A stretch of 64,000 bases of DNA from Candidatus Binatia bacterium (GTDB lineage: Bacteria > Desulfobacterota > Binatia > UBA9968 > JAJDTQ01), in assembly GCA_963666515.2 (NCBI GenBank), contig OY762897.2, positions 1-64,000 of the forward strand, given 5' to 3'. The first letter of the stretch is position 1. Each line of letters opens with the position of its first letter. Below are positions 1 to 61,407 of this stretch, piece by piece. The notes beneath the pieces were generated by a model. That model saw only the letters and a program-made list of their open reading frames with translations. It did no database searches and was not told the origin of the DNA. Position numbers and translations under genes: made by a program.

Positions 1-972
1 AGGTGCAAGCGGACAAGCAGTATCACCTTGGGGTGAAGGGGGTGAGCCGATCGTCGTTGGCGCGGGTGAACGAAAAGCAGCCGTATACGTTATACGAGGC
101 GGTGTTCGGCAAGTTGCTGGGCCGCTGTCGGAGTCAGGCGCCGGGACACAAGTTTCGCTTCAAGAACAAGCTGTACTCACTGGATGCGAGCACCATCGAC
201 TTGTGTCCGTCGCTGTTTCCGTGGGCAAAGTTCCGTACCACCAAGGGAGCGGTGAAGGTGCACATGGGATTGGACCACGACGGTTATTTGCCGACCTTCG
301 TCAACATCACCGACGGCAAGACTTCCGACATCCATGGAGCGCGGGCGCTGACCTTGCCCCAGGGCAGCATCCTGGTGGCGGACCGGGGCTACGTGGACTT
401 CAGTTGGCTCAACCACCTGTATTCACAAGGGATTTTCCTGGTCACCCGCCTCAAAAGAGGCGCCTGCTACCGCGTCTGTGAAAGCCGGCCCGTCCGCCCC
501 GAACAGGGCGTGATCTGCGATCAAACCATCGAACTCACTTCCAGCCACTCCAAGTATCCCCGCCCCCTCCGCCGCGTCGGCTACTACGACGCCGCCACCG
601 GCCAGTTCTACGACTTCCTCACCAACCACTTCTCCCTGGCCCCCAAAACCATCGCCGACATCTACAAAGACCGCTGGCAAGTCGAACTCTTCTTCAAGTG
701 GATCAAGCAGCACCTCAAAGTCAAAAGCTTCCTCGGAACCTCCCGCAACGCCGTCCTCACTCAGCTCTGGATCGCCCTCTGTGTCTATCTCCTCATCGCT
801 TACATCAAGTTCCTCAATCGTATCTCCCTCTCCCTCTACCACATCCTCCGCCTCCTCCAACTCAACCTCTTCGACCGCCGCCCGCTCCTTTCCCTCCTCT
901 ACCCGCCGCCCCCGGCTCCCCCGCCACCCCAACTCCCCCTCCCGGGTACCTAAAGTTTGTGGGACAGCAGTG
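1..972 (+). mobile_element. IS4-family insertion sequence (left part outside window)
   Basis: Transposase ORF followed by a terminal-repeat-like end GTTTGTGGGACAGCAGTG (to 972), where the opposite-strand ATPase gene is cut. Confidence 0.8.
3..953 (+). CDS. IS4-family DDE transposase (5' partial)
   Basis: LDASTIDL, VADRGY and YKDRWQVELFFKWIKQHL (YREK-type) motifs. Confidence 0.92.
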   Translation: MQADKQYHLGVKGVSRSSLARVNEKQPYTLYEAVFGKLLGRCRSQAPGHKFRFKNKLYSLDASTIDLCPSLFPWAKFRTTKGAVKVHMGLDHDGYLPTFVNITDGKTSDIHGARALTLPQGSILVADRGYVDFSWLNHLYSQGIFLVTRLKRGACYRVCESRPVRPEQGVICDQTIELTSSHSKYPRPLRRVGYYDAATGQFYDFLTNHFSLAPKTIADIYKDRWQVELFFKWIKQHLKVKSFLGTSRNAVLTQLWIALCVYLLIAYIKFLNRISLSLYHILRLLQLNLFDRRPLLSLLYPPPPAPPPPQLPLPGT

Positions 973-1465
973 TCTCTGGGTAGTCATTTCGAGGTATGTT
1001 GTACATCCAATGTCGAAACGCCGCATCCACGTCAGGTGCATTGTGTCGCTTGATTTCCTCCCGTTTCGATCCAATGACCGAGTTAAGGAATACGCGTAGG
1101 CCCGGTTTACCGTTGTCGGACAGTTGCAAGTGCTTAACGAGTTCTCTATAGACATCGAGCGGACTATCGAGACTCACTCCTTCGCCACACGCGACATAGG
1201 AGACCGCGAATCCTTCTTGCAGAGCCCGCTCGCCAAGAGTCAGCAAGAAGTGGGTTTTGCCACCACCGTAAGATGCCAACACCAGTTTGAAATGCGCGGC
1301 TTCCCGGCAAAGGTCCCGCAGATATCGAGTTGTCAGCCTGTCGATCCAGGGGTTGATTCCAGCCGTATAGCTTGAAAGGATGCGAGAGGCGTTCGTAAGG
1401 TCTGTCGGCGCCTTGCCTTCCTCACCCAACTTGGCCCATAGTTGAGATGCATCATTGTAGTCCAT
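973..1465 (-). pseudogene. BrxD/DUF2791-like P-loop ATPase, N-terminal part truncated by IS4
   Basis: ATG at 1465; FKLVLASYGGGKTHFL Walker A followed by ALQEGFAVSYV; the frame runs into the IS4 end. Confidence 0.7.
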
Positions 1466-1475
1466 CAAAAACCTT

Positions 1476-1777
1476 TCATGCAGTGCCGTGCTCCAAGCCC
1501 TGTGCAACCTCCGTGGCCGCTGCCTTTACGAACTCACGCACACGGCCTTCATGGATGCTGTTGAGATGCTCTGTGGTGAGGTGCGTTAGCGAAACGATAA
1601 GCTGGTTCGCGGCATCAGCAGTCAATCCAGCATCGCGTCCCAATTCAATGATGCGCCCGGCCAGTTCCTCAAAAAACTCGGGCGTGTCTGGTCCAGGCAC
1701 TGTCAACTCGTCGAGCCCCACCCACACTGCACGTGGATTACGTGTTTCACGCAGTTCCGGTACGCTGGTTCGTTCAA
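1476..1777 (-). pseudogene. C-terminal remnant of a second BrxD/DUF2791-like ATPase
   Basis: NPRAVWVGL and GRVREFVKA resemble DUF2791 C-termini; its stop lies 10 bp before the next start; the 5' part is replaced by IS1380. Confidence 0.5.
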
Positions 1778-3326
1778 CTCGATTGTTGCAAAAACCACGG
1801 CTGAATTTAAGAGTCAGGCGCGGGGCGTGAGGGCTGCGAGGGCGTGACGCAGTTCTGCTTCGAGATTCGGATTGGTATTCATCGACAGGATGAGCTTGCC
1901 GGCGGGGCGAATGATACGTCCGGCTCGTTGAATGAGGGTACGGCGCAGGGTTCCGATTTCGCGGAAGCACCACAGGGCGGGGCGCTTGGCTGTGGTGGAA
2001 CGCTCACGGGGGTGGATTCGCATCTGGAGTTCGCGGGTGAGGTTGTGAGCGAGGATGCTGGCGAACATGTACAACTGGTTCCCGACGCGTGTTTTGACGG
2101 GCACGTAGCCCATTTGGCAGTGGGACTTCAACTCGGCGAAGATACCCTCTTGGGATCCCCGTCCTTCGTGGAAGAGCGCCACGTTGCGTGGGCGGATTCT
2201 CTTGTTGGTGACGATGACCTTGAACTCGTACCCATGGGAGACCGGCTTGAAGAGGTCGAGTTGGATTTCCTCCTTGTCCTGGTATCGGACGGGTTTTCTG
2301 ATGAAGACGAAGCGATAGCGGGTGTTCCAGGACTTGGGCTTCCAGCGGGTCTCGAAGTAGCCGAGTCCATTGGCCATGGGCCGCCATCGTTGTCTGCCTT
2401 CGATCATCCCCTTCAGTTCGGCCAAGCGCTCGAAGGGCACCGAGACGGTGAAGGTGACACCCAGGGAGTGAAGCCGGTCGACGATATCCCTGCTGAAGAA
2501 GGCGCTGTCCATGCGCACCTCGATCCTGGCCCGGGGCAGGCTTGCGCGCACGGTGCACACACAGCCCTGGATGAAGGCATCGGCGCCCTTGGAGTCATGG
2601 ACGTTTCCCGGCCGATGGTGCACGTCGAGCACCTGGTCGGTCTGGGCCACGGTGCAAAACAGGGGGTAGTAGCTGCGCGCCCCTTTCTTCTTCTTGTTGA
2701 ACCCCACCGCGGTGCCCTCGGCGTGGCGCCCGGTGCTCAAGACCGAGCCGTCGAAGTCCAGGGTGATAGTCGCGAAACCTTCGGCCACCAGGCGCTCGAT
2801 GACCACCGTTCTCGACTCGGCGCGGACGTTGTCGACGCTGCACGCGTCGGCACTCTTCAGCGAGCGGCTCACGGTAGACACGTCCGGCAAGCGTTTCAGC
2901 CCAAGCAACCGCCGGACCAGTTCATCATCCCGGTAGTACGCCAAGTCTTGCAACTGTCGGTGTCCGATGATGAGATGCACCACCAGCAGCAGCAACACGA
3001 CGTGGTGACCGTAGATCGGATTGGCTTTCAGGTGGCGGAAGCACCGCCCCAGCCGCTCCTTGAGACCCAGGTGGGAAAAGAAGCACTGAAAGAGGATGAG
3101 CCCCGAATACGATGTCAGTTTCTGCGGCTCGAATCGAACCTCCATGCCCAGCGTGGCTTTACCTCGAACCGCGGTTCTGCTAAGTTTCATTTCGTGGTCT
3201 CCGTTTCATCGGGTATTGGGATGATACCAACGATGATTATATCAGTTTCGGAGACCACATCCTTGAGCTCACCTCGTTTTGTTCGAAAAAATGTCGCAAC
3301 AACCCCCCTCGATTTTATCTCACGGG
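1778..3326 (-). mobile_element. IS1380-family insertion sequence (boundaries tentative)
   Basis: Intact transposase; candidate imperfect ends CCCGTGAGATAAAATC and CTCGATTGTTGCAAAA; no target duplication seen. Confidence 0.65.
1814..3190 (-). CDS. IS1380-family transposase (DDE_Tnp_1_4)
   Basis: LTSYSGL, TLDFDGS, YYPLFC, RMDSAFF and HEGRGSQEGIFAELK motifs. Confidence 0.92.
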   Translation of the reverse strand: MKLSRTAVRGKATLGMEVRFEPQKLTSYSGLILFQCFFSHLGLKERLGRCFRHLKANPIYGHHVVLLLLVVHLIIGHRQLQDLAYYRDDELVRRLLGLKRLPDVSTVSRSLKSADACSVDNVRAESRTVVIERLVAEGFATITLDFDGSVLSTGRHAEGTAVGFNKKKKGARSYYPLFCTVAQTDQVLDVHHRPGNVHDSKGADAFIQGCVCTVRASLPRARIEVRMDSAFFSRDIVDRLHSLGVTFTVSVPFERLAELKGMIEGRQRWRPMANGLGYFETRWKPKSWNTRYRFVFIRKPVRYQDKEEIQLDLFKPVSHGYEFKVIVTNKRIRPRNVALFHEGRGSQEGIFAELKSHCQMGYVPVKTRVGNQLYMFASILAHNLTRELQMRIHPRERSTTAKRPALWCFREIGTLRRTLIQRAGRIIRPAGKLILSMNTNPNLEAELRHALAALTPRA

Positions 3327-3415
3327 CGGCTGTGGCTTAGCTTCACAGATGGTGAGCCTGAGCTATTTGCCGTATGACACCGGAGAGCCTTTGTAGGACG
3401 GCCTGAGCGGGCTCT

Positions 3416-3995
3416 TCAAGAGGGCGTTTTGCAACTGACGGGTACACTTGCTGACGCTGGCTGAAGGGGCGACGCGCCGTCAAATGGATTACCGCCGACA
3501 GTCGGTTTCACAATAGCGGGCCTTCCGTGAAGTTCACGGGCGAGCTCTTCGAGTTTCGTCGGATAATCTGAATCCTTGGAGAAGTCGATGTACATTTCTT
3601 CGTCCAAGCCTTTGAGGCAATTGGCGCCCCGGGTTGTCTCGCATGATGGGCAGGAACCTTTTGGTATCGGTTAAGTTGAACAGGTCCGAGGAAATCATCA
3701 TGTCTTCATAGCCGACTCCGCCGGTCCCGCTGTTTGCCTTGTCTACGTAACGCTTCGTGCAGACAAGGATCACTCTACTTGCTGAGGAAATTCCTGTCCT
3801 CATGAACGCCGTAACGTCTTGTCCTGCGGTCAGATCCCATTGGTCGAGAATCGGATCGATTCCTAGGTGGCAGAGGTCTTCTGCGAGATTACGGACCCAA
3901 GTCTTATGTTCTATGGAGTCATGTGAGTACGACACAAAGATCACTGGGGCGCGTCGTTTCACAGTAGTCGTCTCTTCCCTTGGACTATCGACCAT
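3416..3995 (-). pseudogene. SEFIR/TIR-domain protein with a frameshift near 3597
   Basis: IFVSYSHDS, LDQWDL and GGVGYE in ORF 3534-3995; the typical continuation YIDF..LEELARELH..KP.VGGNPF is in another frame (3416-3607). Confidence 0.8.
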
Positions 3996-6900
3996 CGAGT
4001 GAATCCTCGAACATCTTGTTGCGAAAAACAGCCTCGATCGTTTCCGCGGTCCAGTTATCCCCGCGTTGCTTCATGGAGTTCAGGGTGTGGTCTCCGTTGA
4101 CGTAGATTAGATCAAGTGACTCGGGGAACCGTTCTCGGTTGCGAACGAACCATGCATCCAAGGCGGAACAATCCACATTGAGAGTGCGCCAGAGGATAAG
4201 GCACTTCCGCCTCTCTGCGTCCGTGCCGGTGATAGTGGTTATGCTGTCGATCCGACGACGAGTTTCTACACGCAGCCCGATCAGATAGTTGAAAGTCTCA
4301 GGGAGGTCGACTCGCGCCTCACGGCGCTCGCCGTCGCCCAAAACGGACAGCGTGTGGGCGAACGGATCTGCGAAATCACGGTCCTGCAGACCGGCGTTTC
4401 CGGATATCTCTACGCCAAGTGCGTAGCGCAATCGGTAGTCCTCTGCCAGATGGAAGTCTTCTTCCAGCAACCTGGTTTGGTCGTCGGACGGCGGCGTAAG
4501 TTCGAGGCTGTCCAGCGTGTCCTCATAGGATTCGAGGCGTAGGTACTTGAGCAAGTGTGCGATGCCCTCGCGCGAAACAGGCTTGCCACTTCTCCAGTTG
4601 GGCGAGTAGACTACCTTCTTAAGACGAGGTAGCAGTACCTTCTCGAAATGGCTGCCAATCTCGACCAGAATGTACTTACGCCGTTGGCCGTCGTCTCGAT
4701 TCAAGTTGACAACCGCGTGGCCGGTAGTGCCAGAGCCAGCCAGGAAGTCAAGGACGTATTGGTCTCTCGTAGCAATAAAGCCAAGAAGGTTTACGAGCAG
4801 TTCTACTGGCTTCGGATTCTTGAAGACCTCGCGCGAGCCGAAGAGCGATTCCGGGGCGTTCGCACCGACTCTACTGTCGAGTTCGATGAGGCCCTTCAGG
4901 CCGCCGTCGTAGTCGCGCAAGTATTCTTTGATCTGAATGATCTGAGTCTCATCGGTTCCAAAAATGATCTTGTCATTCTCAAGAAGCTTCGTCATGGTTT
5001 CCAATGGAAACCGATAGCCTCGTGCTGGTTCTACACATGGTCTGCCAGTCCTTGGGTGAATGACGTCGTAGCGATAGCCCTCCCTTCCTGGATTGTGAAC
5101 TCTCCTGCCGCCCGTGTAAGGCCCATCCTCGTCAACGCGGTCGTAGTGTGTCAGGGGTGACAATACTTCCCGATTGTCCTTGATGAACTTTCGGAAAAGA
5201 GCCTGAATTTGGGCCAGTTCGTCGTACGAAGCGTGAAGTCGCTCCCATTCCTCCAAAATAAGCGTTTTTGCCTCGTTGGCGGTGCTTTTCCAGACCGGTG
5301 CGGTGGACGCGAGTGCTTTGGCGTACCAGACGAGATACTCGTGTTCGGTCGTAATTCGAGTTGGGTTGTTGTCTGTTGCTCCCTTCCACACCATGTTTGC
5401 GATACGATTGGCTGAACCGAAGCTTTCGTCCATGAGCAAACGAAGAAGGGGTTGCTCTATGTCGTCAATACTCGAGAAAAGGATACCTTCCACCGAGAGC
5501 AATTCGCGGGTGAGGGACAATCTATCCTTTAGCATCGTGACCCAGGATGAGTGCTGATAGCTGTCCCGGTAAGCGAAACCGTCTTCACCGGTGTTGTACG
5601 GTGGGTCGAGGTAGGCACACTGTATTTGTCCCCGATACCGCGCCTCAAGCAGACTAAGCGCCTGAAAGTTCTCCCCGTGCACCAGCAGCCCGTCCAGCTG
5701 TTCGTCCAGGGGGCCGGCCTCGGAAAGCCAGTCCAACAACCGGTCGGTAAAGTTGCCGTCGAAGTGCCGGGTATCCAACATCAAATAGGGGTTGGCCTTG
5801 AGGAAATCTACGCTCGGCGGGTCCGTCCAGGTCGTGCTGCCGTTCGCCAAGTGGCCCGCTATTTCATCCACGGCGTACAGATTGACCCATTCCTCGCACT
5901 GAGCCCGGTTGGCAGCGATTTCGGGGTACAGCGTTTCGGGTACGCGGTCCAGGGTGACGCACCATTGTGTCTCCAGCACGAACTTCTTCTTGAGCCAAAG
6001 CTGTTTCTGGAAGTCCTCCAGTTGCGCCAGAAAGTCGATGATCTTGCCACCCACCTGGCGTGTTGCCCGGACGCGCGCCAGTGCCCGATCCAGCCGGGCC
6101 GTGTCGCCCCGTTCCAGATCGTTCAGGTTCAGGACCTCGGTGTTCAGGTACAGGTCCAGTTCCCGGCGCAGGAAACCGCCAAGGTCCTTGTGGATGAAGT
6201 AGTCGAAGCTGTTCTTGGCCGTGTAGCGGTCCACGTGTTTCGCCAGTAACGTCCGGTCAGGGTTGGCGTCGGTGGGGTCAGGTGCAGCCAGGAGAGGCAG
6301 CCAATCCGGGCCTGCGGTCTTGAGTATTCGGTCGGCGGCAGCCTCGTTGATCCGGCTCTGCTGGGTCCCGCCGTTGCCCGGCCAGGACTTCTTTTCGCCC
6401 TCCGTCAGCGGCCGGTGCTCGAAACGCGCGACGAGTTCGTCGCCCTCGATGGCGACGGCGCCGTTGCCGCCGACGAGCACGAAGCGGCGTTGTCGCCCGT
6501 CAGGTTCCTTGACGTTGTCCTTTCATTGTCGGCTGCCGCAATCTCGAATCGGATGCGCCGCGCCGACTCTCCGACACCCGCTTTGAACGCGTAGCTGGCG
6601 TAGTTCTCGGTCGTTTTGACGTAGTATTGATCGGAGTTCGCCCAGTGCAGCTTCACCTCTTCGCCGTCGTAGGGAATGAGATAGGCTGACCGGCCGCCGC
6701 TGGAATAGCGGCGCTGGGAGATGAAGTCGCCATCGGTGTAGTAGCGGGCGAAGAAGTTGGCGAGGTGGTTGTAGACGTCGGCCTCGGCGTCCACATCCTT
6801 CTTCATCTCGGCGAGTCTTCGGTTCAACTCGACGATCTTGGGCGGAGGATTGGTTTCGGGATCGACCCCCAGCGCTCGAGCCTGTTCGCTGGCCGCCGCC

Positions 6901-52637: not shown

Positions 52638-53450
52638 ATGGCACTGAAAGCCTCCATGGGCGCCACTTACGGCTGGCGCGCGCGCATCGGTTTCGTAACT
52701 CCAAGTCCCGGCCACGAGAACAACGGCTACGAGTTCTATCTCATGGCCCCCGACGGCGTCACCATCGTGATGACGTCGCTGCACGTTACCCAGTTGACCC
52801 AGCAGCAGTATGACGACGCGGTGAGCCGCATGGACGCGGCGGTGAAGGAGCTGGAGGACCGGCGGGTGGATTCTATCATCCAGGCCGGGGTGCCGCTGGT
52901 GGTGACCCGGGGGTGGGGATTCGAGGAGAAACTCCTGGCCGAGGTGGCGCGTCAGACCGCCATACCGTTTGCCACGGACATCGGCTCCTGCATCCGCGCC
53001 ATGCACACCCTGAGCATGGCCCGCGTGGTGATGCTCACGCCCTTCGACGACGTCATGCACCGGCTGCTCGCCGAGTACGTGGGCCACGCCGGCATCGAGG
53101 TGGTGGCCACCCGCTCCCTGTGGCCCTCCGACGAGGCCGCCATGTCACGCCGCTACGGCGTGTCCACCATGCCCCTGGCGGAGATATACCGCGCCGCCAA
53201 GGACCTCTTTCTCTCGACGCCCGGCGCCGACGGCATCTGGATCACCGGCGCCCTCATGCCCAGCGTCGCCGTCATCGACAGCCTGGAGCAGGACCTCGAC
53301 GTCCCCGTGGTGACCAGCATGCAGGCCATGATGTGGGCCGGCCTGGGTCTGGCGCACGTGGACTCGGAGGTGGAAGGATACGGCCACCTGTTCGACTACG
53401 TGTACGGCGCCGAACCGGTTAACGATGACGGATATGACCCGGAAGCGTGA
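52638..53450 (+). CDS. Maleate isomerase/Asp-Glu racemase-superfamily protein
   Basis: YGWRARIG, MAPDGV, LTPF and LEQDLDVPVVTS motifs. Confidence 0.8.
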   Translation: MALKASMGATYGWRARIGFVTPSPGHENNGYEFYLMAPDGVTIVMTSLHVTQLTQQQYDDAVSRMDAAVKELEDRRVDSIIQAGVPLVVTRGWGFEEKLLAEVARQTAIPFATDIGSCIRAMHTLSMARVVMLTPFDDVMHRLLAEYVGHAGIEVVATRSLWPSDEAAMSRRYGVSTMPLAEIYRAAKDLFLSTPGADGIWITGALMPSVAVIDSLEQDLDVPVVTSMQAMMWAGLGLAHVDSEVEGYGHLFDYVYGAEPVNDDGYDPEA

Positions 53451-53537
53451 AGTGCTTGGTTTGGTTCCAGTAACTCGCGGGACGTAAACCGGCAATGCGC
53501 GAGGTTCGTCAAAGGACGGGCTTTCTTGGAGACTCTG

Positions 53538-56500
53538 ATGCCGTTTTCTCCCGGCCAGATCGTATGCTTGGCGTCCAACCCATCTGTTACGGGAGCCGTC
53601 GTCGACATCGTGGCAGGATCGTCCGAAGACTCCGTCAGGGTTTTTGTCAACGGCGATATTCGGACGTATTTCGCCTCTCAATTACAGGTTGCTGATCCAG
53701 CGGACCACGCAACGCCTCTGTCTGCAAGGCACTTTCAGGCCCGCCTGACCGCCCTGCAAATACGCCATCCCAACCTCTCGACGCTGTATTCGCTCAATGC
53801 CGCCCGTGTCGATTTCATCCCCTATCAGTTCCGTCCGGTGCTGAGATTCATCCGTTCCGACCGTCCGCGCTTGCTGATAGCCGATGGCGTGGGGGTGGGC
53901 AAAACCATCGAGGCCGGGCTGATTCTCAGGGAGTTGCAGGCTCGGCGGGAGGTCAAGTCCGTTCTCATCGTGTGTCCCCGTCCGCTCGTGACCGAGCGTA
54001 AATGGGAACTGGAGATGAAACGCTTTGACGAAAGGTTTACCCATTTGGACGGTGCAACATTGCGATACTGCATCAACGAAATGCACCTTGAGGGCGAATG
54101 GCCCGACCAGCATCGGAAAACGATCCTTCCGTATTCGCTGTTCGACGAGGCGCTTCTGTACGGTCCCGGCGGCAAAAAAAGCCGGAAACGACAACGCGGC
54201 AATGGTCTTTTGGATCTGGATCCGCCCCCGCGCTTCGACCTCGTCATCGTGGACGAAGCCCACCACATCCGCAATCCGGACACCCATAGGCACGCGGCGG
54301 TACGGTTTTTCTGTGAACATGCCGAAGCAGCGGTCTTTCTTACTGCCACCCCTGTTCAGCTCGACAGCCACGACCTTTTCGTGTTGTTGAACGTGTTGCG
54401 TCCCGATCTCGTACTGGATCAGGCCAGCTTCGAGCACATGGCGGAGCCGAACCCGTTCATCAACCAGGCCGTGCACCATGCCCGTACGCAAGGGCAAGGT
54501 TGGACGGGGCGCGCGACGGCCGCCCTTGAACAGGCAGCCGCCACCGCCTGGGGCCAAGCGATACTCAGGGACAATCCCGAATTCGGGCGGATCAGGGACA
54601 GGCTTGCCAAGGGGAGCGTCGCTGCCGACGAGAGGGTTCAATTCATCACCGACATGGAAGCCTTGCATACGTTTTCGGGCATTATCAACCGTACGCGTCG
54701 GCGCGATATCGGCGCGTTCACCATTCGGAAGCCGGAAACGTTCAAGGTTGCATTCACGCCCGACCAACAACGGCTTCATGACGAGTTGCTCCGTGTTCAG
54801 GCCGAGATATTCAGCCGGTTGCATCCAAGCGCCAACGTCAAGTTCATGATGACCACGATTCGACGGCAGGCTGCGAGTTGCCTTTATGGACTTGCTCCCT
54901 TCCTCACGGATATCCTGAATCGTCATCTCGATGAACTGGAATGGGAGGAGGTCGACGATACGGGTACGGTTCCGTGGAGCGATGTCAACGGCCCAATCCG
55001 CGCGCAGATCGAAACCATTCTGGAGCACGCCCGCAACCTTGACCCCGAAGACCCGAAACTTGAGACGTTGCGTAAAATCATCCGGGATAAGCAGGCCCTG
55101 CCTAACAACAGGATCATGCTGTTCAGCAGCTTTCGGCACACGCTTGCCTATCTGAACGGACGTCTCAGAGAGGATGGTATCCGCGCTGGAATGATTCACG
55201 GTGGTACGCCGGACGACGAACGTGTGGTACTGCGCAACCGCTTCGAGAAGCCACGTGAAGACCGTGACGCCCTTGATGTCCTGCTGTTCTCGGAGGTTGG
55301 TTGTGAAGGTTTGGACTACCAGTTCTGCGACTGCATCGTGAACTACGACCTGCCATGGAATCCCATGCGAATCGAGCAGCGCATCGGCCGTATCGACCGT
55401 AAGGGTCAGCGGAGCGAAAGCGTTGCCATCGTCAACCTGATTATCCCCGGAACGGTCGATGCGGACATTTACGAGCGCTGCCTTGTCCGCATCGGCGTGT
55501 TCGAGAATGCCTTGGGGGGCAGCGAGGCGATACTTGGCGACATCTCCACCGAAATCAAGAATATCGCCGAAAACTATTCCCTTAGTGAGGTAGACCGCCG
55601 GGAGAAACTGCAACAGTTGGCGGACAACAAGATTCGGTTGGTACAGGAACAGGAAAGGCTCGAGGAGCAGCAGTCGGAGCTCTTCGGTATTCGTCTGCCG
55701 GAAGATCAGATGAAGCAGGAGATCGAGGACGCATCGAGTTTCTGGCTGTCTCCGTCGTCGCTCCGCAAGCTGGTCACGGTGTATCTGCAAGATACCTGCG
55801 GGACGGCGCAGGAGTTCATCCTTGGCGAGAAATCCCTTAAAACATTGCGCCTTTCCCAAGATGCCCGGAATCACATGCTGCGTGACTTTCAGCAGCTCTC
55901 TGGACGGAGGAATACACCTGCCTATCGCGCCTGGGAAACTTGGTTAAAGGGAAGTGACCCACACTTGTCCATCACCTTCGATGCGGATTGCGCGAGCCAG
56001 AATCCACGAGTCACCTTCATCATGCCGCTGCACCCGCTCGTCATCCAGGCCGCCGGATCGCTTGTCGCAAAGCGGGTGGTCAGGACTACATTGAAGGCCA
56101 AGACTGACCGAATGCCTGCAGGGCGCTACGAGTTCGCCGTCTACCAATGGCAGTTCCACGGTATCCGGGAAGATCTGGTGCTCAAGCCGATTGCTGCATC
56201 GCGGGTTCTGACACCAGACCTTGGTCGTTTGCTTGAGAATGCGGTGGATGTCGAGCCGGACAGATGCGACAGTGTGGCTACCGAGTGGGACGAGTTGGAT
56301 GGACGGCACCACGACCTCTGGTCCGAGGCCCGTAGACAGCATCAACAACGGACTCGGGAACTCGCAGCGTACCGAAGGGAGAGCTTGGCCACCAGCCATC
56401 ACGCGCGCTTGGCGCTTCTAAGAGATCAACACCGAACCGCCGGCGACGACAATATCCGACGAATGCGTCAGTCGCAGATCGATTCTGCCGAGGCGGACTA

Positions 56501-56597
56501 CAATCGACGTTGCCGGGAGTTGGATTCGGCCATCGAGAGAGCGGATGTTGTCGCCGAGCCCGTGGCGTATGGGATACTGTATATTGAGCTATATTGA
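53538..56597 (+). CDS. SNF2-family helicase/ATPase (defence-type, HmaA/DrmD-like)
   Basis: PYQ, ADGVGVGKT, VDEAHH, TATP, EGLD, NYDLPWNP and QRIGRIDR motifs. Confidence 0.9.
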   Translation: MPFSPGQIVCLASNPSVTGAVVDIVAGSSEDSVRVFVNGDIRTYFASQLQVADPADHATPLSARHFQARLTALQIRHPNLSTLYSLNAARVDFIPYQFRPVLRFIRSDRPRLLIADGVGVGKTIEAGLILRELQARREVKSVLIVCPRPLVTERKWELEMKRFDERFTHLDGATLRYCINEMHLEGEWPDQHRKTILPYSLFDEALLYGPGGKKSRKRQRGNGLLDLDPPPRFDLVIVDEAHHIRNPDTHRHAAVRFFCEHAEAAVFLTATPVQLDSHDLFVLLNVLRPDLVLDQASFEHMAEPNPFINQAVHHARTQGQGWTGRATAALEQAAATAWGQAILRDNPEFGRIRDRLAKGSVAADERVQFITDMEALHTFSGIINRTRRRDIGAFTIRKPETFKVAFTPDQQRLHDELLRVQAEIFSRLHPSANVKFMMTTIRRQAASCLYGLAPFLTDILNRHLDELEWEEVDDTGTVPWSDVNGPIRAQIETILEHARNLDPEDPKLETLRKIIRDKQALPNNRIMLFSSFRHTLAYLNGRLREDGIRAGMIHGGTPDDERVVLRNRFEKPREDRDALDVLLFSEVGCEGLDYQFCDCIVNYDLPWNPMRIEQRIGRIDRKGQRSESVAIVNLIIPGTVDADIYERCLVRIGVFENALGGSEAILGDISTEIKNIAENYSLSEVDRREKLQQLADNKIRLVQEQERLEEQQSELFGIRLPEDQMKQEIEDASSFWLSPSSLRKLVTVYLQDTCGTAQEFILGEKSLKTLRLSQDARNHMLRDFQQLSGRRNTPAYRAWETWLKGSDPHLSITFDADCASQNPRVTFIMPLHPLVIQAAGSLVAKRVVRTTLKAKTDRMPAGRYEFAVYQWQFHGIREDLVLKPIAASRVLTPDLGRLLENAVDVEPDRCDSVATEWDELDGRHHDLWSEARRQHQQRTRELAAYRRESLATSHHARLALLRDQHRTAGDDNIRRMRQSQIDSAEADYNRRCRELDSAIERADVVAEPVAYGILYIELY

Positions 56598-56615
56598 GCG
56601 GGTCGAGAGGACACA

Positions 56616-59600
56616 ATGAATCTCGAAGAATTACGACAGAGACGCCTGAAATGGGTGGAAGCGAATCGCGAAAACGACTTTGAAGACGGTATCAGAGCCC
56701 TTCTCACGGACCTCTATCCGGACAATGCACATTTTATTTACGAGCTTCTTCAGAATGCTGAGGATGCCCAGGCAACGGCAGTTCGCTTCGTCCTCAAGCA
56801 GGACGGCGTTGAATTTGAGCACGACGGGAAGCTGTTTTCGATCCAGGACGTAAAGGACATTACAAGTATCGGAAATAGCGCAAAGAAAGACGATCCGACC
56901 AGCATCGGCAAGTTCGGGATCGGTTTCAAGGCCGTGTTTGCCTATACGACGACGCCGGAAATCGCATCTGGTCAATTTCATTTTCGCCTCCGTGACCTGG
57001 TGGTGCCAGAAACAGAGGGATTGGCGCCGCATCCACCTGATGGAGAAAAGACCCTGTTCGTCTTTCCTTTTAATAACCCTGCAAAGTCGCCCGAAAAGGC
57101 CCGTGATGAGATTGAGAGAAACCTCCGGCAGTTGGACGAATACGCCCTCCTTTTTCTGAAGAGTATCAAGAAAATAGAGTACCAGTTGCCCGATTCGTCC
57201 CAGGGGTCTCTGAGGCGGAAGGAACCAAAAGGTGACCGGATTGAAATTTTCATCGAGCACCCTGAAGAAGCAGGGTCGAGTTCACGTTCATTTCTCCGGT
57301 TCGACGGGTCCGTTGAAGTCGATGATGAGGACGGCGAACCCAAGGTGTGCCGCATTGCCGTTGCTTTCGGCTTGGAACGGAGCCAGGACCCGGAAGCGAA
57401 ACGGTCCGGCGGCAAGAGAAAACCACGGGTAGGCCGTTGGAAGATAGCGCCGTTGGAGCCGGGGAAGGTTTGCATCTATTTCCCTGCGGAAAAGGAAACA
57501 TCCAATCTTCGGTTTGCGTTGCACGCGCCTTTTGCCTCGACCGTTGCGCGCGACAGCGTGCGCGATTGCGCAGCGAACGATGCCTTGCGGGATCACTTGA
57601 CGGATCTCATCGCGGAGTCAATGACCAACCTGCGCGATCAGGATTTGTTGACGGTGAGCTTTCTTGCGACGTTACCCAACGACAAGGACAATTTGCCTCC
57701 ATTCTACAAGCCGATCTTGGAAAAGCTGGTCGAGGTGTTCCAGAGCCAGAAGCTTACACCGATGAAGGATGGCAGTCACGAGGTCGCAAATGGGGTATTT
57801 AGAGGTTCCAGGCAGCTATCCGACCTCATAGGTGATGAGGATTTGGCGACAATCCTCGGACAGGACGATTATTGCCCGCCGATGTGGATCGCCAATCCCC
57901 CTCAACAACACCAGCGTGAAGACAACTTTCTTTCCCTGCTGAGCGGCATCTCTGAATGGACGAGGGAAGATCTCGTCCAGCGGCTGTCCACTCGACCGGA
58001 ACAGGTCGCCAAATGGCTGACGAACAAGTCGGCTCATTGGCACCGAAAACTCTACGCGTTCCTGGGTGACTTCTTGACAAGCGCGCCAAATCGTCGGGAG
58101 GAAGCAGATCGTAAACGCAAGCTGGAACAGCTCCCCGTGGTTCTCTGCAGCGATGGCGCGCACAGGGTCGGGCAGGAATGTTACTTCCCTGGCGACGAAG
58201 ACGAGGGCGACGACGGGTTCCCACGTGTGGCCAGACACACCTATTCTTCTGGCGACAATCCGCAAGAGCAGAGGAAGGCCCGTGAGTTTCTTGACGTTGT
58301 TGGGGTTGGTGAAGTCGACGAGGCTGAAAGGGTGAAGGCGATTCTGAAGGAGCGATATTCGGAGGGCTCAATCGAACCTCGCCAACAGGATATGGAGAGA
58401 TTCATCAGGCTCGTCGAAGGATACGAGCGGTGTGCGGACATGTTCCGGGAACATTGTATCTTTCAATTGGAAACAGGAGATTGGGGGAAGCCAAGCACGG
58501 TCTTTCTTGACTCACCCTATCGAGACACCGGCCTGACGGCTTACTATGAGATACTCGGTGAAGCTCAGGGAAGGAGACGGGCGCTCTCCACGAAGTATGA
58601 CGCGTTTGGCATAGAGCCAACACGGTTGGGGGAGTTTGCTGAGGCGGTAGGCGCTCAGACAGAGCTACGACCCAGCAAACAAAGGATTCCCCCTAGCCAT
58701 CCTGAAAGGCGCAGGCTAAGTGACGGAGGGGGATGGTCAGAGAAGTACGGAATAGATAAGGACTACGATATCCCGGAGTTTGACGTGCTGTTGGGGCAGC
58801 CCAGCTTGGACAGGTCGAGGTTAATCTGGCAAACGATGACAGAACTGCCTGGTGCGTGTCTGAAAGCGGAGTATCGGTCCAATAGCTGGCATGCCTCGAA
58901 GGTTGCCGAGTCCACGCTTGTCCACAAGCTCAGAAGGCGCGAGTGGGTTCCGCAAACACAGGACGGCGGAGAGAGCATCCGTTTCGTGACGCCTGCTGAA
59001 GCCGTTTCTGACGGTCTCCTTAAGGGCTTTGCATTCGACCCGGGAGTGGAATGGCTGGAAGCAATCGAGTTTGGAAAGTCTCGACGAGATCGAGAGAAGG
59101 GTGAACGTCAGAGAAAAGAACAGTCTGCCCAAGACTTTCAGCGACAAAGCGAGGCATCTGAGGTGTTGGGGTTTCGGAGCGTTGAAGACGCGCTAGAGTT
59201 GGCACAGATGTTGCGTCAAGATCCTGGGATAGTGGAGCGATTGAAGAAAGACAAGCAGAAACCGCCATTTCCTGAAAGGGTGGCCCGTAACGCCGGTCGT
59301 GCGCGGGCACGGCTCATTGAAGATGTCGCTAGCCGTCCCGAGAAGGAATACGGTACGCGACCCAGAAGCGTGCGGGTCACAAGGAACGAGATCGATCCCG
59401 ATACCTGGTTGAGGAACCAGTACACGAACGAGGATGGACAGATGGTCTGCCAGATTTGCAAAGACGCAATGCCGTTCATGAAACGGGACGGCGAGCACTA
59501 CTTCGAGGCGGTGGAAGCCTTGTCCAGAGATTATTTTCCCAAGGAGCACGAAGAACAATTTCTGGCCCTGTGCCCACTTTGTGCCGCGATGTACAAGGAA

Positions 59601-59855
59601 TTCGTCAAGCGCGACGAAGATGTCATGAAACGTCTGTATGAGTGGTTGAAGGATTCAGATGAGCCTGAACTGCCACTGACGTTGGGACAATGGAGTGCGA
59701 GTCTCCGGTTCGTGGAAACTCACCGGCAGCGCCTGAAGGCGATCTTGGCCGTCGTGGACCACGGTGACGCGTGGACCGTGCAAGATGAAAACGATCTGAC
59801 CACTGCCTCCTTGCGGTACGCGGAAGGGCGCTACCCGGAGGAGGACGTTGTTTAA
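56616..59855 (+). CDS. Sacsin-type GHKL ATPase with C-terminal HNH-like Zn domain and short acidic tail
   Basis: YELLQNAEDA, HDG and GKFGIGFKAVF motifs; CQIC..YFEAVE..LCPLC; tail VDHGDAWTVQDENDLTTASLRYAEGRYPEEDVV. Confidence 0.8.
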   Translation: MNLEELRQRRLKWVEANRENDFEDGIRALLTDLYPDNAHFIYELLQNAEDAQATAVRFVLKQDGVEFEHDGKLFSIQDVKDITSIGNSAKKDDPTSIGKFGIGFKAVFAYTTTPEIASGQFHFRLRDLVVPETEGLAPHPPDGEKTLFVFPFNNPAKSPEKARDEIERNLRQLDEYALLFLKSIKKIEYQLPDSSQGSLRRKEPKGDRIEIFIEHPEEAGSSSRSFLRFDGSVEVDDEDGEPKVCRIAVAFGLERSQDPEAKRSGGKRKPRVGRWKIAPLEPGKVCIYFPAEKETSNLRFALHAPFASTVARDSVRDCAANDALRDHLTDLIAESMTNLRDQDLLTVSFLATLPNDKDNLPPFYKPILEKLVEVFQSQKLTPMKDGSHEVANGVFRGSRQLSDLIGDEDLATILGQDDYCPPMWIANPPQQHQREDNFLSLLSGISEWTREDLVQRLSTRPEQVAKWLTNKSAHWHRKLYAFLGDFLTSAPNRREEADRKRKLEQLPVVLCSDGAHRVGQECYFPGDEDEGDDGFPRVARHTYSSGDNPQEQRKAREFLDVVGVGEVDEAERVKAILKERYSEGSIEPRQQDMERFIRLVEGYERCADMFREHCIFQLETGDWGKPSTVFLDSPYRDTGLTAYYEILGEAQGRRRALSTKYDAFGIEPTRLGEFAEAVGAQTELRPSKQRIPPSHPERRRLSDGGGWSEKYGIDKDYDIPEFDVLLGQPSLDRSRLIWQTMTELPGACLKAEYRSNSWHASKVAESTLVHKLRRREWVPQTQDGGESIRFVTPAEAVSDGLLKGFAFDPGVEWLEAIEFGKSRRDREKGERQRKEQSAQDFQRQSEASEVLGFRSVEDALELAQMLRQDPGIVERLKKDKQKPPFPERVARNAGRARARLIEDVASRPEKEYGTRPRSVRVTRNEIDPDTWLRNQYTNEDGQMVCQICKDAMPFMKRDGEHYFEAVEALSRDYFPKEHEEQFLALCPLCAAMYKEFVKRDEDVMKRLYEWLKDSDEPELPLTLGQWSASLRFVETHRQRLKAILAVVDHGDAWTVQDENDLTTASLRYAEGRYPEEDVV

Positions 59856-60189
59856 GCCGAGCGATGTGGTAGTGCTCGACTTCCCTGGGGTGAGGGGTGT
59901 CAAACGCCGACCGGCAGTGGTCGTCTCCTCATCTGTTTACCATGCCTCCCGACCTGACGTGGTGGTCGGCCTGATAACGAGTCGCACCACCAGACTTGGC
60001 GCCATGGACTATGTCCTGCAGGATTGGGCACAGGCCGGCTTGAGGCTCCCTTCCGTTTTTAGGTGTTTTTTCGCCACGTTGCCCGGCACCCGGGCTAGCG
60101 TTGTCGGCGAACTGTCGGGCCGCGATTGGCGGGGCGTACGCGGGCGCGTAAGAGTCGCTCTGGCGCCATTGGCCACTCGGAAGCATTAG
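59848..60189 (+). CDS. PemK/MazF-family toxin
   Basis: DVVVLDFP, KRRPAVVVS, GLITS and DWAQAGL motifs; SD GGAGGAGG then TTG; 8-nt overlap with the upstream gene. Confidence 0.85.
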   Translation: MFKPSDVVVLDFPGVRGVKRRPAVVVSSSVYHASRPDVVVGLITSRTTRLGAMDYVLQDWAQAGLRLPSVFRCFFATLPGTRASVVGELSGRDWRGVRGRVRVALAPLATRKH

Positions 60190-60267
60190 GGATGTCGCGT
60201 CCGTCAGGACATCGTACGCGGATGTGAGGACGGTGCGTAGTGGGGAAACTGCTGTTGCGGCGGGGAG

Positions 60268-61284
60268 TTACGCGAGCCGCGGCGCCACCTTCTCGGTGAG
60301 CAGACGGATGGAGTTGAGGACCTGTTCGTGGGGGATCTGGCCGCCGTGGTTCATGTCCAGGATCAGGCCGGTGAGTCCCGTGCGCTCGCGGAATTCCTCC
60401 AGGCGGTCGACCACCGACTCGGGCGAGCCGAAGATGACGCGGGTGTTCAGGAACTCGTCGTAATCGTTCATGAACCTCTGGGCCTGGGCGACGCGGTCGG
60501 CGGCGTTCATGGCCGTGGCTTCGGCGATGACCCGGTGCAGGTCGTGGACCACGCTGGCTCTCGGGGTCTCGCGCGCCAGCTCTTCCGACTCGGCGACGAA
60601 GACGGGCACGCGCACATGGATCTCGGGCGGGTCGGCGTGGCCGGCGGCCTGCCATTCGTCGCGGTAGATCTGCAAGCGGTCCTCGTAGTAGTCGCCCATG
60701 AACCACAACACCACGTTGAAACCGCGCCGGGCGGTGGCGGCGAAGCCTTCGGGGGTGCGGACGGCCATGTAGATGGGGGGATGGGGCTTCTGCAGCGGCC
60801 GGGGTGAAATGCTGACGTCGTGGTACGAGTAGTAGTCGCCCTCGAAGGAGAACGTGTCCTGGGTGAAGGCGCGCATGACGATCTCGAACGACTCGGTGAA
60901 ACGCGCGGTGCTTTCCGAGTAGGGGATGTTGAAGCCGTCGTAGAACTTGGGGATGCTGCTGCGGCCGACGCCGAAGTCGAACCGTCCGTGGCTCATGTGG
61001 TCGATGGAGGCCACCTCTTCGGCGATGCGCAGGGGGTTGCCCAAGGGCAGCACCTGCACCGCGGTGCCGATGCGCACGCGCTGCGTGCGCGACGCGATTG
61101 CGCCGGCCACAGCCATGGACGCCGACAGCACCGAGGCCTGGGGCCGGAAGTGGTGCTCGACGATCCAGATGGAGTCCAGGCCCATGGATTCGGCGGCATC
61201 CACCTGCGCGAACAGCTCGTCGAAGGCGAGCGTCTGTGTCTGATCCTTCCGAACGTGACAGTCAACCAGCAAGCCGAACTTCAT
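60268..61284 (-). CDS. LLM-class flavin-dependent oxidoreductase
   Basis: WIVEHHF, NPLRIAEE, GRFDFGVGR and PRPLQKPHPPI motifs. Confidence 0.9.
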   Translation of the reverse strand: MKFGLLVDCHVRKDQTQTLAFDELFAQVDAAESMGLDSIWIVEHHFRPQASVLSASMAVAGAIASRTQRVRIGTAVQVLPLGNPLRIAEEVASIDHMSHGRFDFGVGRSSIPKFYDGFNIPYSESTARFTESFEIVMRAFTQDTFSFEGDYYSYHDVSISPRPLQKPHPPIYMAVRTPEGFAATARRGFNVVLWFMGDYYEDRLQIYRDEWQAAGHADPPEIHVRVPVFVAESEELARETPRASVVHDLHRVIAEATAMNAADRVAQAQRFMNDYDEFLNTRVIFGSPESVVDRLEEFRERTGLTGLILDMNHGGQIPHEQVLNSIRLLTEKVAPRLA

Positions 61285-61407
61285 TCGAATGATTCCTGTC
61301 GTGTTACCCGGAGCCCCCGGTCTCCGGGTAAGCGAATCCGCCCGAGCGCAGGGCAGTGACACTGCGCCCTGCCTCGTTCCGGAGCGCGGTTTTTCCGAAC
61401 TCCGCCC

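Follow-up and report, generated by a model that had tools for sequence, protein, structure and literature searches.

In the genome of a Candidatus Binatia bacterium (contig OY762897.2 of assembly GCA_963666515.2, positions 1 to 64,000 of the forward strand, a stretch of 64,000 nucleotides called the window in the following), a gene encoding a large GHKL ATPase runs directly into a gene encoding a toxin of the PemK/MazF family. This raises the question which protein serves as the antitoxin of this toxin. An earlier interpretation made from the DNA letters (the sequence-only reading) had proposed that the last 35 amino acids (aa) of the ATPase form an antitoxin-like tail. Our comparisons show that the GHKL protein carries the genome's only copy of the predicted cognate motif for a toxin gene which, judged from the junction, is translationally coupled to the GHKL gene, and the protein with its tail very probably works like an antitoxin. 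We put the probability at roughly three in four that the 120-kDa GHKL ATPase is the antitoxin, that each tail holds a PemK dimer and that the state of this ATPase governs the RNase activity. The features forming the junction are the following:

56616..59855, + strand: Tiamat-like GHKL (sacsin-type) ATPase, 1079 aa including the tail (Pfam SACS 4.5e-21; PADLOC TmtA 8.8e-58)
59748..59852, + strand: antitoxin-derived tail, 35 aa, putative toxin-neutralising linear motif (hhalign, profile search, complex model)
59837..59845, + strand: Shine-Dalgarno-like GGAGGAGGA for PemK, within the PEEE codons of the tail (read from the sequence)
59848..60189, + strand: PemK/MazF-family toxin gene, 113 aa, TTG start (Pfam PemK_toxin 1e-07, 32.6 bits)

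The GHKL open reading frame (ORF) ends with RFVETHRQRLKAILAVVDHGDAWTVQDENDLTTASLRYAEGRYPEEDVV, the stop codon being located at positions 59853-59855. As PemK starts with the TTG at 59848, the two genes overlap by 8 nucleotides (TTGTTTAA). Beginning with AVVD, the residues of the tail read AVVDHGDAW...PEEDVV. The sequence-only reading had located the Shine-Dalgarno sequence of the toxin inside the codons of the tail and had noted the overlap with the toxin start; both are found at this junction.

The origin of the tail becomes apparent from the relatives of the toxin. We examined 80 metagenome loci with a PemK 52-75% identical to that of the window, of which three could not be evaluated owing to less than 10 nucleotides of upstream DNA. 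In each of the remaining 77 an upstream ORF ends at the PemK start and carries the tail motif at its C-terminus. These ORFs encode free-standing antitoxins of about 75 aa (e.g. P0250, 73 aa). Their C-terminal half aligns with the window tail. The N-terminal half consists of a helical ...ERLRLAALIL... segment, the place of which is taken by a DUF2281-like segment in five loci (L135, L143, L145, L147 and L155). Compared to a profile of 29 free antitoxins, from which the GHKL tails had been excluded, the window tail reached an hhalign probability of 97.4% (E 1.3e-11, 35 columns), ruling out a chance similarity. The sequence-only reading had mentioned that short D-x-W-[TS] peptides occur upstream of PemK-like genes. 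Such peptides were indeed detected, D-x-W-[ST]-x-Q-D-x-x-D-L...S-L-x-Y-A being present in 77 of the 80 metagenome loci.

The window tail exhibits the C-terminal motif of these antitoxins, D-x-W-[ST]-x-Q-D-x-x-D-L-x-x-x-S-L-x-Y-A...PEE, and the GHKL gene takes their position directly upstream of the toxin gene, its stop overlapping the toxin start. It does not encode a small free-standing protein with an own N-terminal helical domain (ERLRLA..LIL or DUF2281 type). In the GHKL protein the motif comes after residue 1044, and the N-terminal domain is gone, so that we regard the protein as a derivative of the antitoxin family and not as an ordinary member. By sequence, no relatives of the antitoxin were found in the PDB, and Pfam returned nothing above threshold for the free antitoxin (Unstab_antitox E 0.062; DUF2281 1.1e-4 for the second type; none for L098).

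The same applies to the junction. In 29 of the 32 free pairs whose stop lies 5 nucleotides after the match start, the toxin begins with a TTG inside ...C-TTG-TTT-AA, located after GAGGAGGA-like PEEE codons, and 28 of the 32 show an 8-nucleotide overlap between this TTG and a TAA or TAG stop. Window and L002, the only other tail-bearing locus for which DNA was available, have an identical layout with the Shine-Dalgarno sequence in the PEEE codons, the TTG start and the 8-nucleotide overlap. Shared homology together with the shared junction therefore indicates the transfer of a single block, which comprised the 3' half of the antitoxin gene, the coupled junction and the toxin gene. Thereby, the toxin-neutralising segment, its cognate PemK gene and their junction would have been transplanted onto the 3' end of a GHKL gene, and the antitoxin's own N-terminal domain would have been left behind. 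At window positions 59739-59750 and in the relatives, tail-less GHKL proteins end with ...TILQ, and ...LILQEL immediately precedes the motif in free antitoxins. Both parents are therefore similar where they are joined; this likeness could be microhomology or convergence. Two gene calls, P0298 (142 aa) and P0350 (215 aa), run from the antitoxin or tail straight into PemK sequence and are probably deletions or frameshifted assemblies.

Is the tail a regular part of GHKL proteins? With the C-terminal 280 aa as query, 692 relatives were obtained, and the following counts refer to the best 120 of these. A tail of the same kind is present on 32 of them; the other 88 are tail-less and end 0-15 residues past the last helix (...H-x-x-D-M-K-T-I-L; window: ...HRQRLKAIL). 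The 35 aa thus extend beyond the end of the nuclease-like domain, as had been assumed from the window. In all 32 tail-bearing homologues W, D(+4), S(+12), Y(+15) and Y(+20) of the tail are invariant, and the proteins terminate in LV, IV or VV. The GHKL bodies are about 50-60% identical to the window protein, tail-bearing and tail-less ones being about equally distant. Five invariant tail positions on bodies of only about 50-60% identity indicate that the fusion is maintained through divergence. When the last 200 aa were folded without a partner by AlphaFold2 (AF2), the tail exhibited a predicted local distance difference test score (pLDDT) of 48-61 behind a confident domain, as expected of a disordered neutralising motif.

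Two further sequences belong to this comparison. Corresponding to window positions 59556-59729, the runs X1 and X3 contain a diverged 303-letter contig, the further letters of which would encode an end without the tail (…MRTILDSRQ…), so that a tail-less relative is present in these samples, too. P0247 (1133 aa), a GHKL/SACS protein whose C-terminal zinc finger is of another kind (…CQICE…CLCPWH…), is also terminated by the tail, which suggests that the cassette has become attached to more than one GHKL subtype.

The tail was found in frame in 31 further protein clusters from other assemblies. Additionally, contigs of four public runs were compared with window positions 58800-60300, whereby runs matching the window perfectly may be its own source. 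A contig of 9,789 letters from the run of another study spans 59173-60201 with 36 substitutions and 0 gaps. No insertions or deletions were observed in the contigs of the four runs among the changes listed (40, with 23 more beyond these). An assembly artefact is ruled out by the 31 clusters and the gapless contig. A missed stop, which would make the tail a separate small gene, had been named as a possible refutation; neither a stop nor a frame change was present in the window, the 31 clusters or the contig of the other study. Between the window and the strain of run X5 the single change in the tail codons (59771) is synonymous, among 40 of 63 changes listed. Two changes just upstream of the tail lead to L>M and A>T, as in P0003.

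Tail and toxin occur together. For the best 80 members of the GHKL family, one per species, the genome loci were inspected, 71 of which comprise at least 600 nucleotides of downstream DNA. Exactly one locus (L002) has the tail, and it is also the only one with a downstream match to the PemK profile (2.8e-65), overlapping the GHKL stop. The only other match to this profile in the 80 loci (L045, 5e-4) lies upstream of the helicase. PemK is hence located directly downstream in both tail-bearing loci with DNA (window and L002) and in none of the 79 tail-less genome loci. Three relatives on viral contigs have neither the tail nor PemK (3/3). The sequence-only reading had suggested to check whether homologues without PemK lack the tail, too, and this is the case for the 79 genome loci and the three viral loci.

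PemK homologues number 640 and are mostly 110-125 aa long. In a comparison of listings by eye, 8 of the 32 tail-bearing GHKL clusters agreed with a PemK cluster in the length of the longest contig (7253, 17297, 11054, 121547, 9894, 3280995, 10589 and 5709), compared to 1 of the 88 tail-less clusters. Misses are to be expected here, because the PemK list comprised the best 120 of the 640 clusters. For the tail-less P0045 (ending …SPSP) and the PemK protein P0224 the longest contig is 12002 in both cases, possibly one contig. P0224 is placed outside the GHKL-linked PemK clade and may be part of an ordinary pair elsewhere on the contig.

In the genome of the window (4.67 Mb, 98% complete) the tail profile has one match (4.3e-17), which is the tail itself. 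Since this remains the only match at E <= 10, the earlier statement that there is no separate antitoxin ORF can be extended to the genome. Eight other PemK-family genes are present elsewhere on the chromosome (L166-L173), which are more typical members of the family (61-107 bits vs 32 bits). Homology, junction, co-occurrence and genome uniqueness make the assignment of the tail as an antitoxin-derived module a well supported one at the sequence level.

For a tree of the GHKL proteins the C-terminal 600 aa were used after removal of the tail; it comprised 110 rows, P0002 and 10 proteins of less than 1000 aa having been left out. Presence and absence of the tail imply 6 changes on this tree, and starred branches enforce at least 3 of these. 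The approximately unbiased test rejected one common clade of the tail-bearers (difference in log likelihood 178.9, p 0.000145; 46-row subset hand-picked to span the clades). The PemK tree comprised the window, L002, the 8 contig-matched toxins, 44 of the 77 free pairs and P0224. Here, the 10 GHKL-linked toxins form one group nested among free pairs (Shimodaira-Hasegawa-like approximate likelihood ratio test 90, not starred). In the simplest reading of these trees, the capture of the cassette took place on one or a few occasions and was followed by repeated loss or by exchange between GHKL lineages. Such an exchange might have taken place by recombination in the conserved 3' ends. With either history the cassette is kept intact through much divergence.

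The toxin itself scores 32.6 bits against PF02452, above the cut-off of 23.1 (32 bits in the genome scan). In 28 PemK relatives KRRP (K19-P22) and ITS-x-T (I43-T47) show no or almost no variation; judged from MazF, where an Arg in the beta1-beta2 loop and a Thr or Ser after the ITS strand belong to the active site, these segments presumably contain the catalytic residues. The PemK profile had no match in the PDB at E <= 0.001. With a marginal E of 1.2e-3, KRRP and ITSxT align with KRRP and ITSNT of Mycobacterium tuberculosis MazF6 (5hk0), a deposited variant of which differs at the aligned Thr of ITSNT.

A model of the tail with a PemK dimer had been proposed as a check. We modelled two PemK chains together with the last 45 residues of the GHKL protein, each with an alignment, in three runs. 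The interaction prediction score from aligned errors (ipSAE) was 0.91 for the complex vs 0.01 for the best of 3 controls. The mark of 0.91 is reached by 116 of 157 solved complexes and by 2 of 215 mismatched pairs. At least 89% of the contacts are common to the runs, and the pLDDT of the partner is at least 77. In the model the tail lies in the dimer groove and contacts residues 9-22, 42-48 and 64-79 of both PemK copies, including the KRRP and ITS segments. This supports that the tail binds across the PemK dimer groove. Together with the homology to free antitoxins, the same coupled junction, the co-occurrence with PemK and the sole copy in the genome, the groove model bears out the description of the 35 aa as an antitoxin-like tail.

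The motif is not restricted to GHKL proteins. A tail profile of 45 positions was searched against 1.84 billion representative proteins (E <= 1e-3) and matches 335 of them. Nearly all of the best 150 are proteins of 40-130 aa with the motif at the C-terminus; the matches include gene calls of 38-58 aa, barely longer than the motif, which may be truncated. Larger carriers among the matches listed are P0079 (GHKL fusion) and P0310 (293 aa, with unrelated N-terminal 255 aa). In P0248 (189 aa) another unrelated N-terminus is combined with the tail motif. Pfam detected nothing significant in the N-terminal parts of P0310 and P0248, and the ESM Atlas assigned them to unnamed hypothetical clusters (DUF6188 in 30% of one; for P0310 nothing at >=0.8). 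The full antitoxin profile gave 9 matches among longer proteins, including P0248 and P0247. As the word filter of this search is crowded by long proteins, the small number says little for or against further carriers. The motif is found on at least five kinds of N-terminal partner, including two small-antitoxin types, and is therefore portable, in agreement with the earlier notion of a portable antitoxin tag.

The remaining features of the islet and its flanks are:

53526..56597, + strand: SNF2-family helicase (DrmD-like), first gene of the islet (Pfam SNF2-rel_dom 1.8e-15, Helicase_C 2.8e-19)
59400..59747, + strand: CxxC...CPxC zinc-finger domain with HNH-like fold, C-terminal part of the GHKL protein (AF2, Foldseek, invariant Cys)
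52638-53450: arylmalonate-decarboxylase-like gene, one flank of the islet
60268-61362, - strand: luciferase-like monooxygenase gene, other flank of the islet

The islet consists of three genes on the + strand, encoding the SNF2 helicase, the GHKL ATPase and PemK (about 6.7 kb coding), and is located between metabolic genes. Its GC content is 0.55-0.58 vs 0.65-0.70 in the flanks; the low-GC three-gene block is horizontally acquired. A promoter and terminator scan of 53000-60500 was uninformative, as the counts did not exceed those expected from shuffling. In the related strain of run X5, which belongs to another study, 1,824 extra letters are present between window positions 60216 and 60268, just after PemK.

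Residues 5-891 of the helicase match the DrmD profiles of PADLOC end to end (2e-111). A same-strand SNF2 relative lies directly upstream of the GHKL gene in 69 of the 80 genome loci, so that SNF2 and GHKL form a conserved core. In L002 the upstream SNF2 gene (L002:704-4013) is apparently split into the ORFs 704-3436 and 3465-4013. A Thioalkalivibrio contig harbours tandem GHKL homologues (L055:4893-8072 and L055:8905-12045), both tail-less. GHKL residues 3-588 match positions 7-582 of the 1302 positions of the PADLOC TmtA profile (8.8e-58). Along with the SACS match (4.5e-21) this corresponds to the N-terminal sacsin-type GHL ATPase and the central region of Tiamat; the match ends near residue 590. 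The zinc-finger domain is confident in the AF2 model of the last 200 aa (pLDDT above 90), and C945, C948, C986 and C989 are invariant. A Foldseek search of this domain against the PDB yielded nothing at E <= 1e-3, the best matches being HNH nucleases (EcoKMcrA E 4.3e-3, Cap5, PacI, Cas9 HNH). The label HNH is based on these weak matches and on the Tiamat preprint. A catalytic His is not evident, and the HNH-like domain seems to be devoid of catalytic residues.

With the Tiamat protein TmtA the window protein shares the N-terminal sacsin-type GHL ATPase. Unlike Tiamat proper, it has no PD-(D/E)xK nuclease; its C-terminus is the CxxC/CPxC zinc finger with weak HNH matches. It fits the 'Tiamat-like' class, HNH-like 'Type IV', described in passages of preprint 10.64898/2026.09.30.754977 and not Tiamat proper. 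According to the same passages, Tiamat-like proteins have helicase neighbours including Swi/Snf types, and it was the B. cereus Tiamat, not this subtype, that was tested biochemically. From this preprint and the DrmD and TmtA profile matches an anti-phage role of the SNF2+GHKL pair may be assumed. 'mazf' and 'pemk' have 0 occurrences in the main text of the preprint, and its main-text passages seen here make no mention of an antitoxin fusion. About a quarter of the Tiamat-like subfamily has tail and PemK as an add-on. The whole-length DrmD match (2e-111) of the helicase is reminiscent of DISARM. Membership in this system was rejected: DrmA, DrmB, DrmC and the methyltransferase are absent from the three-gene islet, and its flanks are metabolic.

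As in MazEF/PemIK, a toxin of the PemK fold is preceded by and coupled to a gene with an acidic, Trp-containing C-terminal stretch, which is modelled in the dimer groove. In contrast to these pairs, the putative neutralising stretch follows a 1044-aa ATPase instead of being part of a small labile antitoxin with an own N-terminal domain. The nearest solved toxin is M. tuberculosis MazF6 (5hk0). Antitoxins are known to be modular, and a linear neutralising motif on an unrelated carrier (Phd-C on SUMO) suffices against its toxin, as stated in passages of the NetFlax study (PMC10440598); large ATPases, too, can act as antitoxins in defence systems according to these passages. The window protein resembles the modular antitoxins considered there (Phd-C on SUMO, the multidomain PanA, the AAA-ATPase antitoxins of RNase-fold toxins) in carrying a short disordered motif on a foreign carrier. 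The carriers differ, being DNA-binding domains, Panacea and AAA/OLD-type ATPases there; a GHKL or Tiamat-like carrier was not met in those passages of PMC10440598. All parts of the present system are known, namely the PemK/MazF toxin, the modular type II antitoxin motif, the Tiamat-like ATPase and the SNF2 partner. Full-text literature searches yielded no description of a Tiamat-like or GHKL defence protein to which an antitoxin motif is fused.

It is well known that blocking of the restriction enzyme by T4 frees PrrC. This anticodon nuclease, which has no conventional antitoxin, is silenced by association with EcoprrI (PrrI) and unleashed when immunity is compromised, as described in passages of PMC3506569. 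There, a coupling of immunity and toxins was put forward as a general hypothesis in 2012. The proposed logic of an RNase held by an immunity protein would be the same in the window, where it is deduced from the antitoxin motif and the complex model. In contrast, PrrC is an ABC-ATPase/HEPN-type nuclease without antitoxin motif, whereas in the window a recognisable antitoxin segment is covalently fused. Furthermore, phage activation is documented for PrrC and hypothetical here.

How might the fusion work? A flexible C-terminal tail would tether a PemK dimer and lie across its RNA-binding and active-site groove, and the tail would thereby neutralise PemK within an operon that is presumably antiviral. 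The weak TTG start is coupled to GHKL translation, so that the toxin should not outrun its inhibitor. With the GHKL protein as antitoxin, the RNase activity of PemK would follow the amount and state of this protein. The trigger could be a conformational change of the GHKL protein upon sensing of foreign DNA with the SNF2 partner, or its inhibition, degradation or loss. The tail would then let go, PemK would cleave RNA and growth would stop, as an abortive-infection or back-up arm. Three possibilities of release (sensing, guard, addiction) are considered here, and they are not mutually exclusive. A release during the ATPase and DNA-sensing cycle is attractive, as the protein's own HNH-like domain seems catalytically poor, and we mention it as a tentative suggestion. 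That PemK is a bona fide output arm of the Tiamat-like system, an RNase on a covalent leash released by the foreign-DNA-driven ATPase cycle or by phage disabling, seems to us to fall somewhat short of an even chance.

Alternatively it might be that the toxin serves addiction. A deletion, a frameshift or a nonsense mutation within the costly 3.2-kb GHKL ORF would remove the C-terminal antitoxin, and the stable toxin would kill the cells that lose the defence gene, a phage trigger being unnecessary. Type II toxin-antitoxin pairs are classical addiction modules (Makarova 2009), and a comparable logic is described for CRISPR-repressed toxins (10.1101/2024.01.05.574328). Moreover, the place of the antitoxin's discarded N-terminal domain is now taken by the very gene that would be protected, and the islet was horizontally acquired (GC 0.56 vs 0.65-0.70). 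However, owing to translational coupling an upstream nonsense mutation would lower new toxin synthesis, too, and the apparently repeated loss or exchange of tail and PemK on the GHKL tree indicates that the lock is escapable. We regard addiction as a doubtful, though realistic, alternative; it would also be compatible with a role in defence.

A guard mechanism in the strict sense, as favoured by the sequence-only reading, would keep PemK bound until a phage inhibitor or phage-induced proteolysis disables the GHKL protein, whereupon the freed RNase aborts infection. The tethering is backed by the antitoxin homology, the sole genome copy and the complex model, and a toxin that is accessory to a minority of the systems is what one expects of a back-up layer. 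We know of no anti-Tiamat factor, and no phage trigger was identified by sequence. The PrrC precedent and the explicit hypothesis of immunity components as reversible toxin inhibitors, unleashed by viral counter-defence (passages of PMC3506569), are in line with a guard. Yet the same data fit a release on sensing or an addiction role. As a special case of the explanation preferred here with a named trigger the guard is plausible; in its strict form we consider it rather unlikely.

Improbable is the view that a separate small antitoxin peptide is made, also or only, from an internal start (e.g. TTG 59745, GTG 59754), the fusion being merely apparent. In-frame TTG and GTG codons do precede the tail, an in-frame Met is located 10 residues ahead of the conserved Trp in L002, and gene calls of 38-58 aa that barely exceed the motif are among the profile matches. 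But these short calls may be truncated contig ends, no conserved Shine-Dalgarno sequence was established before the tail, and the tail is contiguous with the GHKL body in the window, the 31 clusters and the contig of the other study (0 gaps). A decaying relic, i.e. a cassette beside the GHKL gene that lost its antitoxin start with the toxin already inactive, might explain the modest Pfam score of PemK (32.6 bits; 32 vs 61-107 bits for the genome's other 8 copies), but is highly improbable given that tail and PemK are kept across the clade (PemK identity down to about 68%, GHKL to 50-60%), that the low score is common to the whole subfamily including pairs with free antitoxins, that KRRP and ITSxT are kept and that the sole tail-codon change vs X5 is synonymous (among 40 of 63 changes listed).

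Several points weigh against our interpretation of the GHKL protein as the antitoxin of PemK and as part of a defence system. Binding, neutralisation and trigger, as well as the anti-phage activity of this Tiamat-like subtype, are all inferred. Only two tail-bearing loci with DNA are available, and 22 of the 32 tail-bearing clusters come without information on the downstream gene. PemK is dispensable for the core function, considering that 88 of the 120 relatives and 79 of the 80 species genomes manage without it. With eight other PemK-family genes in the genome, cross-talk is possible. Furthermore, solved complexes of the MazE-MazF type may account for part of the model score; this is limited by the fact that the antitoxin has no PDB relative by sequence and the toxin only a marginal one.

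For immunity proteins that restrain toxins there is one classical worked example, PrrC, and otherwise support by gene neighbourhood. In the islet described here such a restraint can be read from the sequence, as the defence-type ATPase is fused to a putative neutralising motif that is recognisable as such and can be compared with free-standing relatives. Nature also provides controls, the tail being absent from three quarters of the close homologues and the toxin from the tail-less loci read. With a legible motif and natural controls, the coupling hypothesis becomes directly testable with simple constructs. For the Tiamat-like subtype, whose HNH-like domain seems to lack catalytic residues, PemK would be an added effector, and the fusion is a compact solution, found in nature, by which a MazF-type RNase may be coupled to a sensor of any kind. 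If PemK is indeed the output arm, this would be the first case in which the sequence reveals an immunity protein that has become antitoxin to its own suicide effector, a coupling already hypothesised in 2012. Being present on the unrelated carriers P0310 and P0248 as well, the leash motif would then be a general plug-in by which a MazF-type toxin may be wired to any sensor protein.

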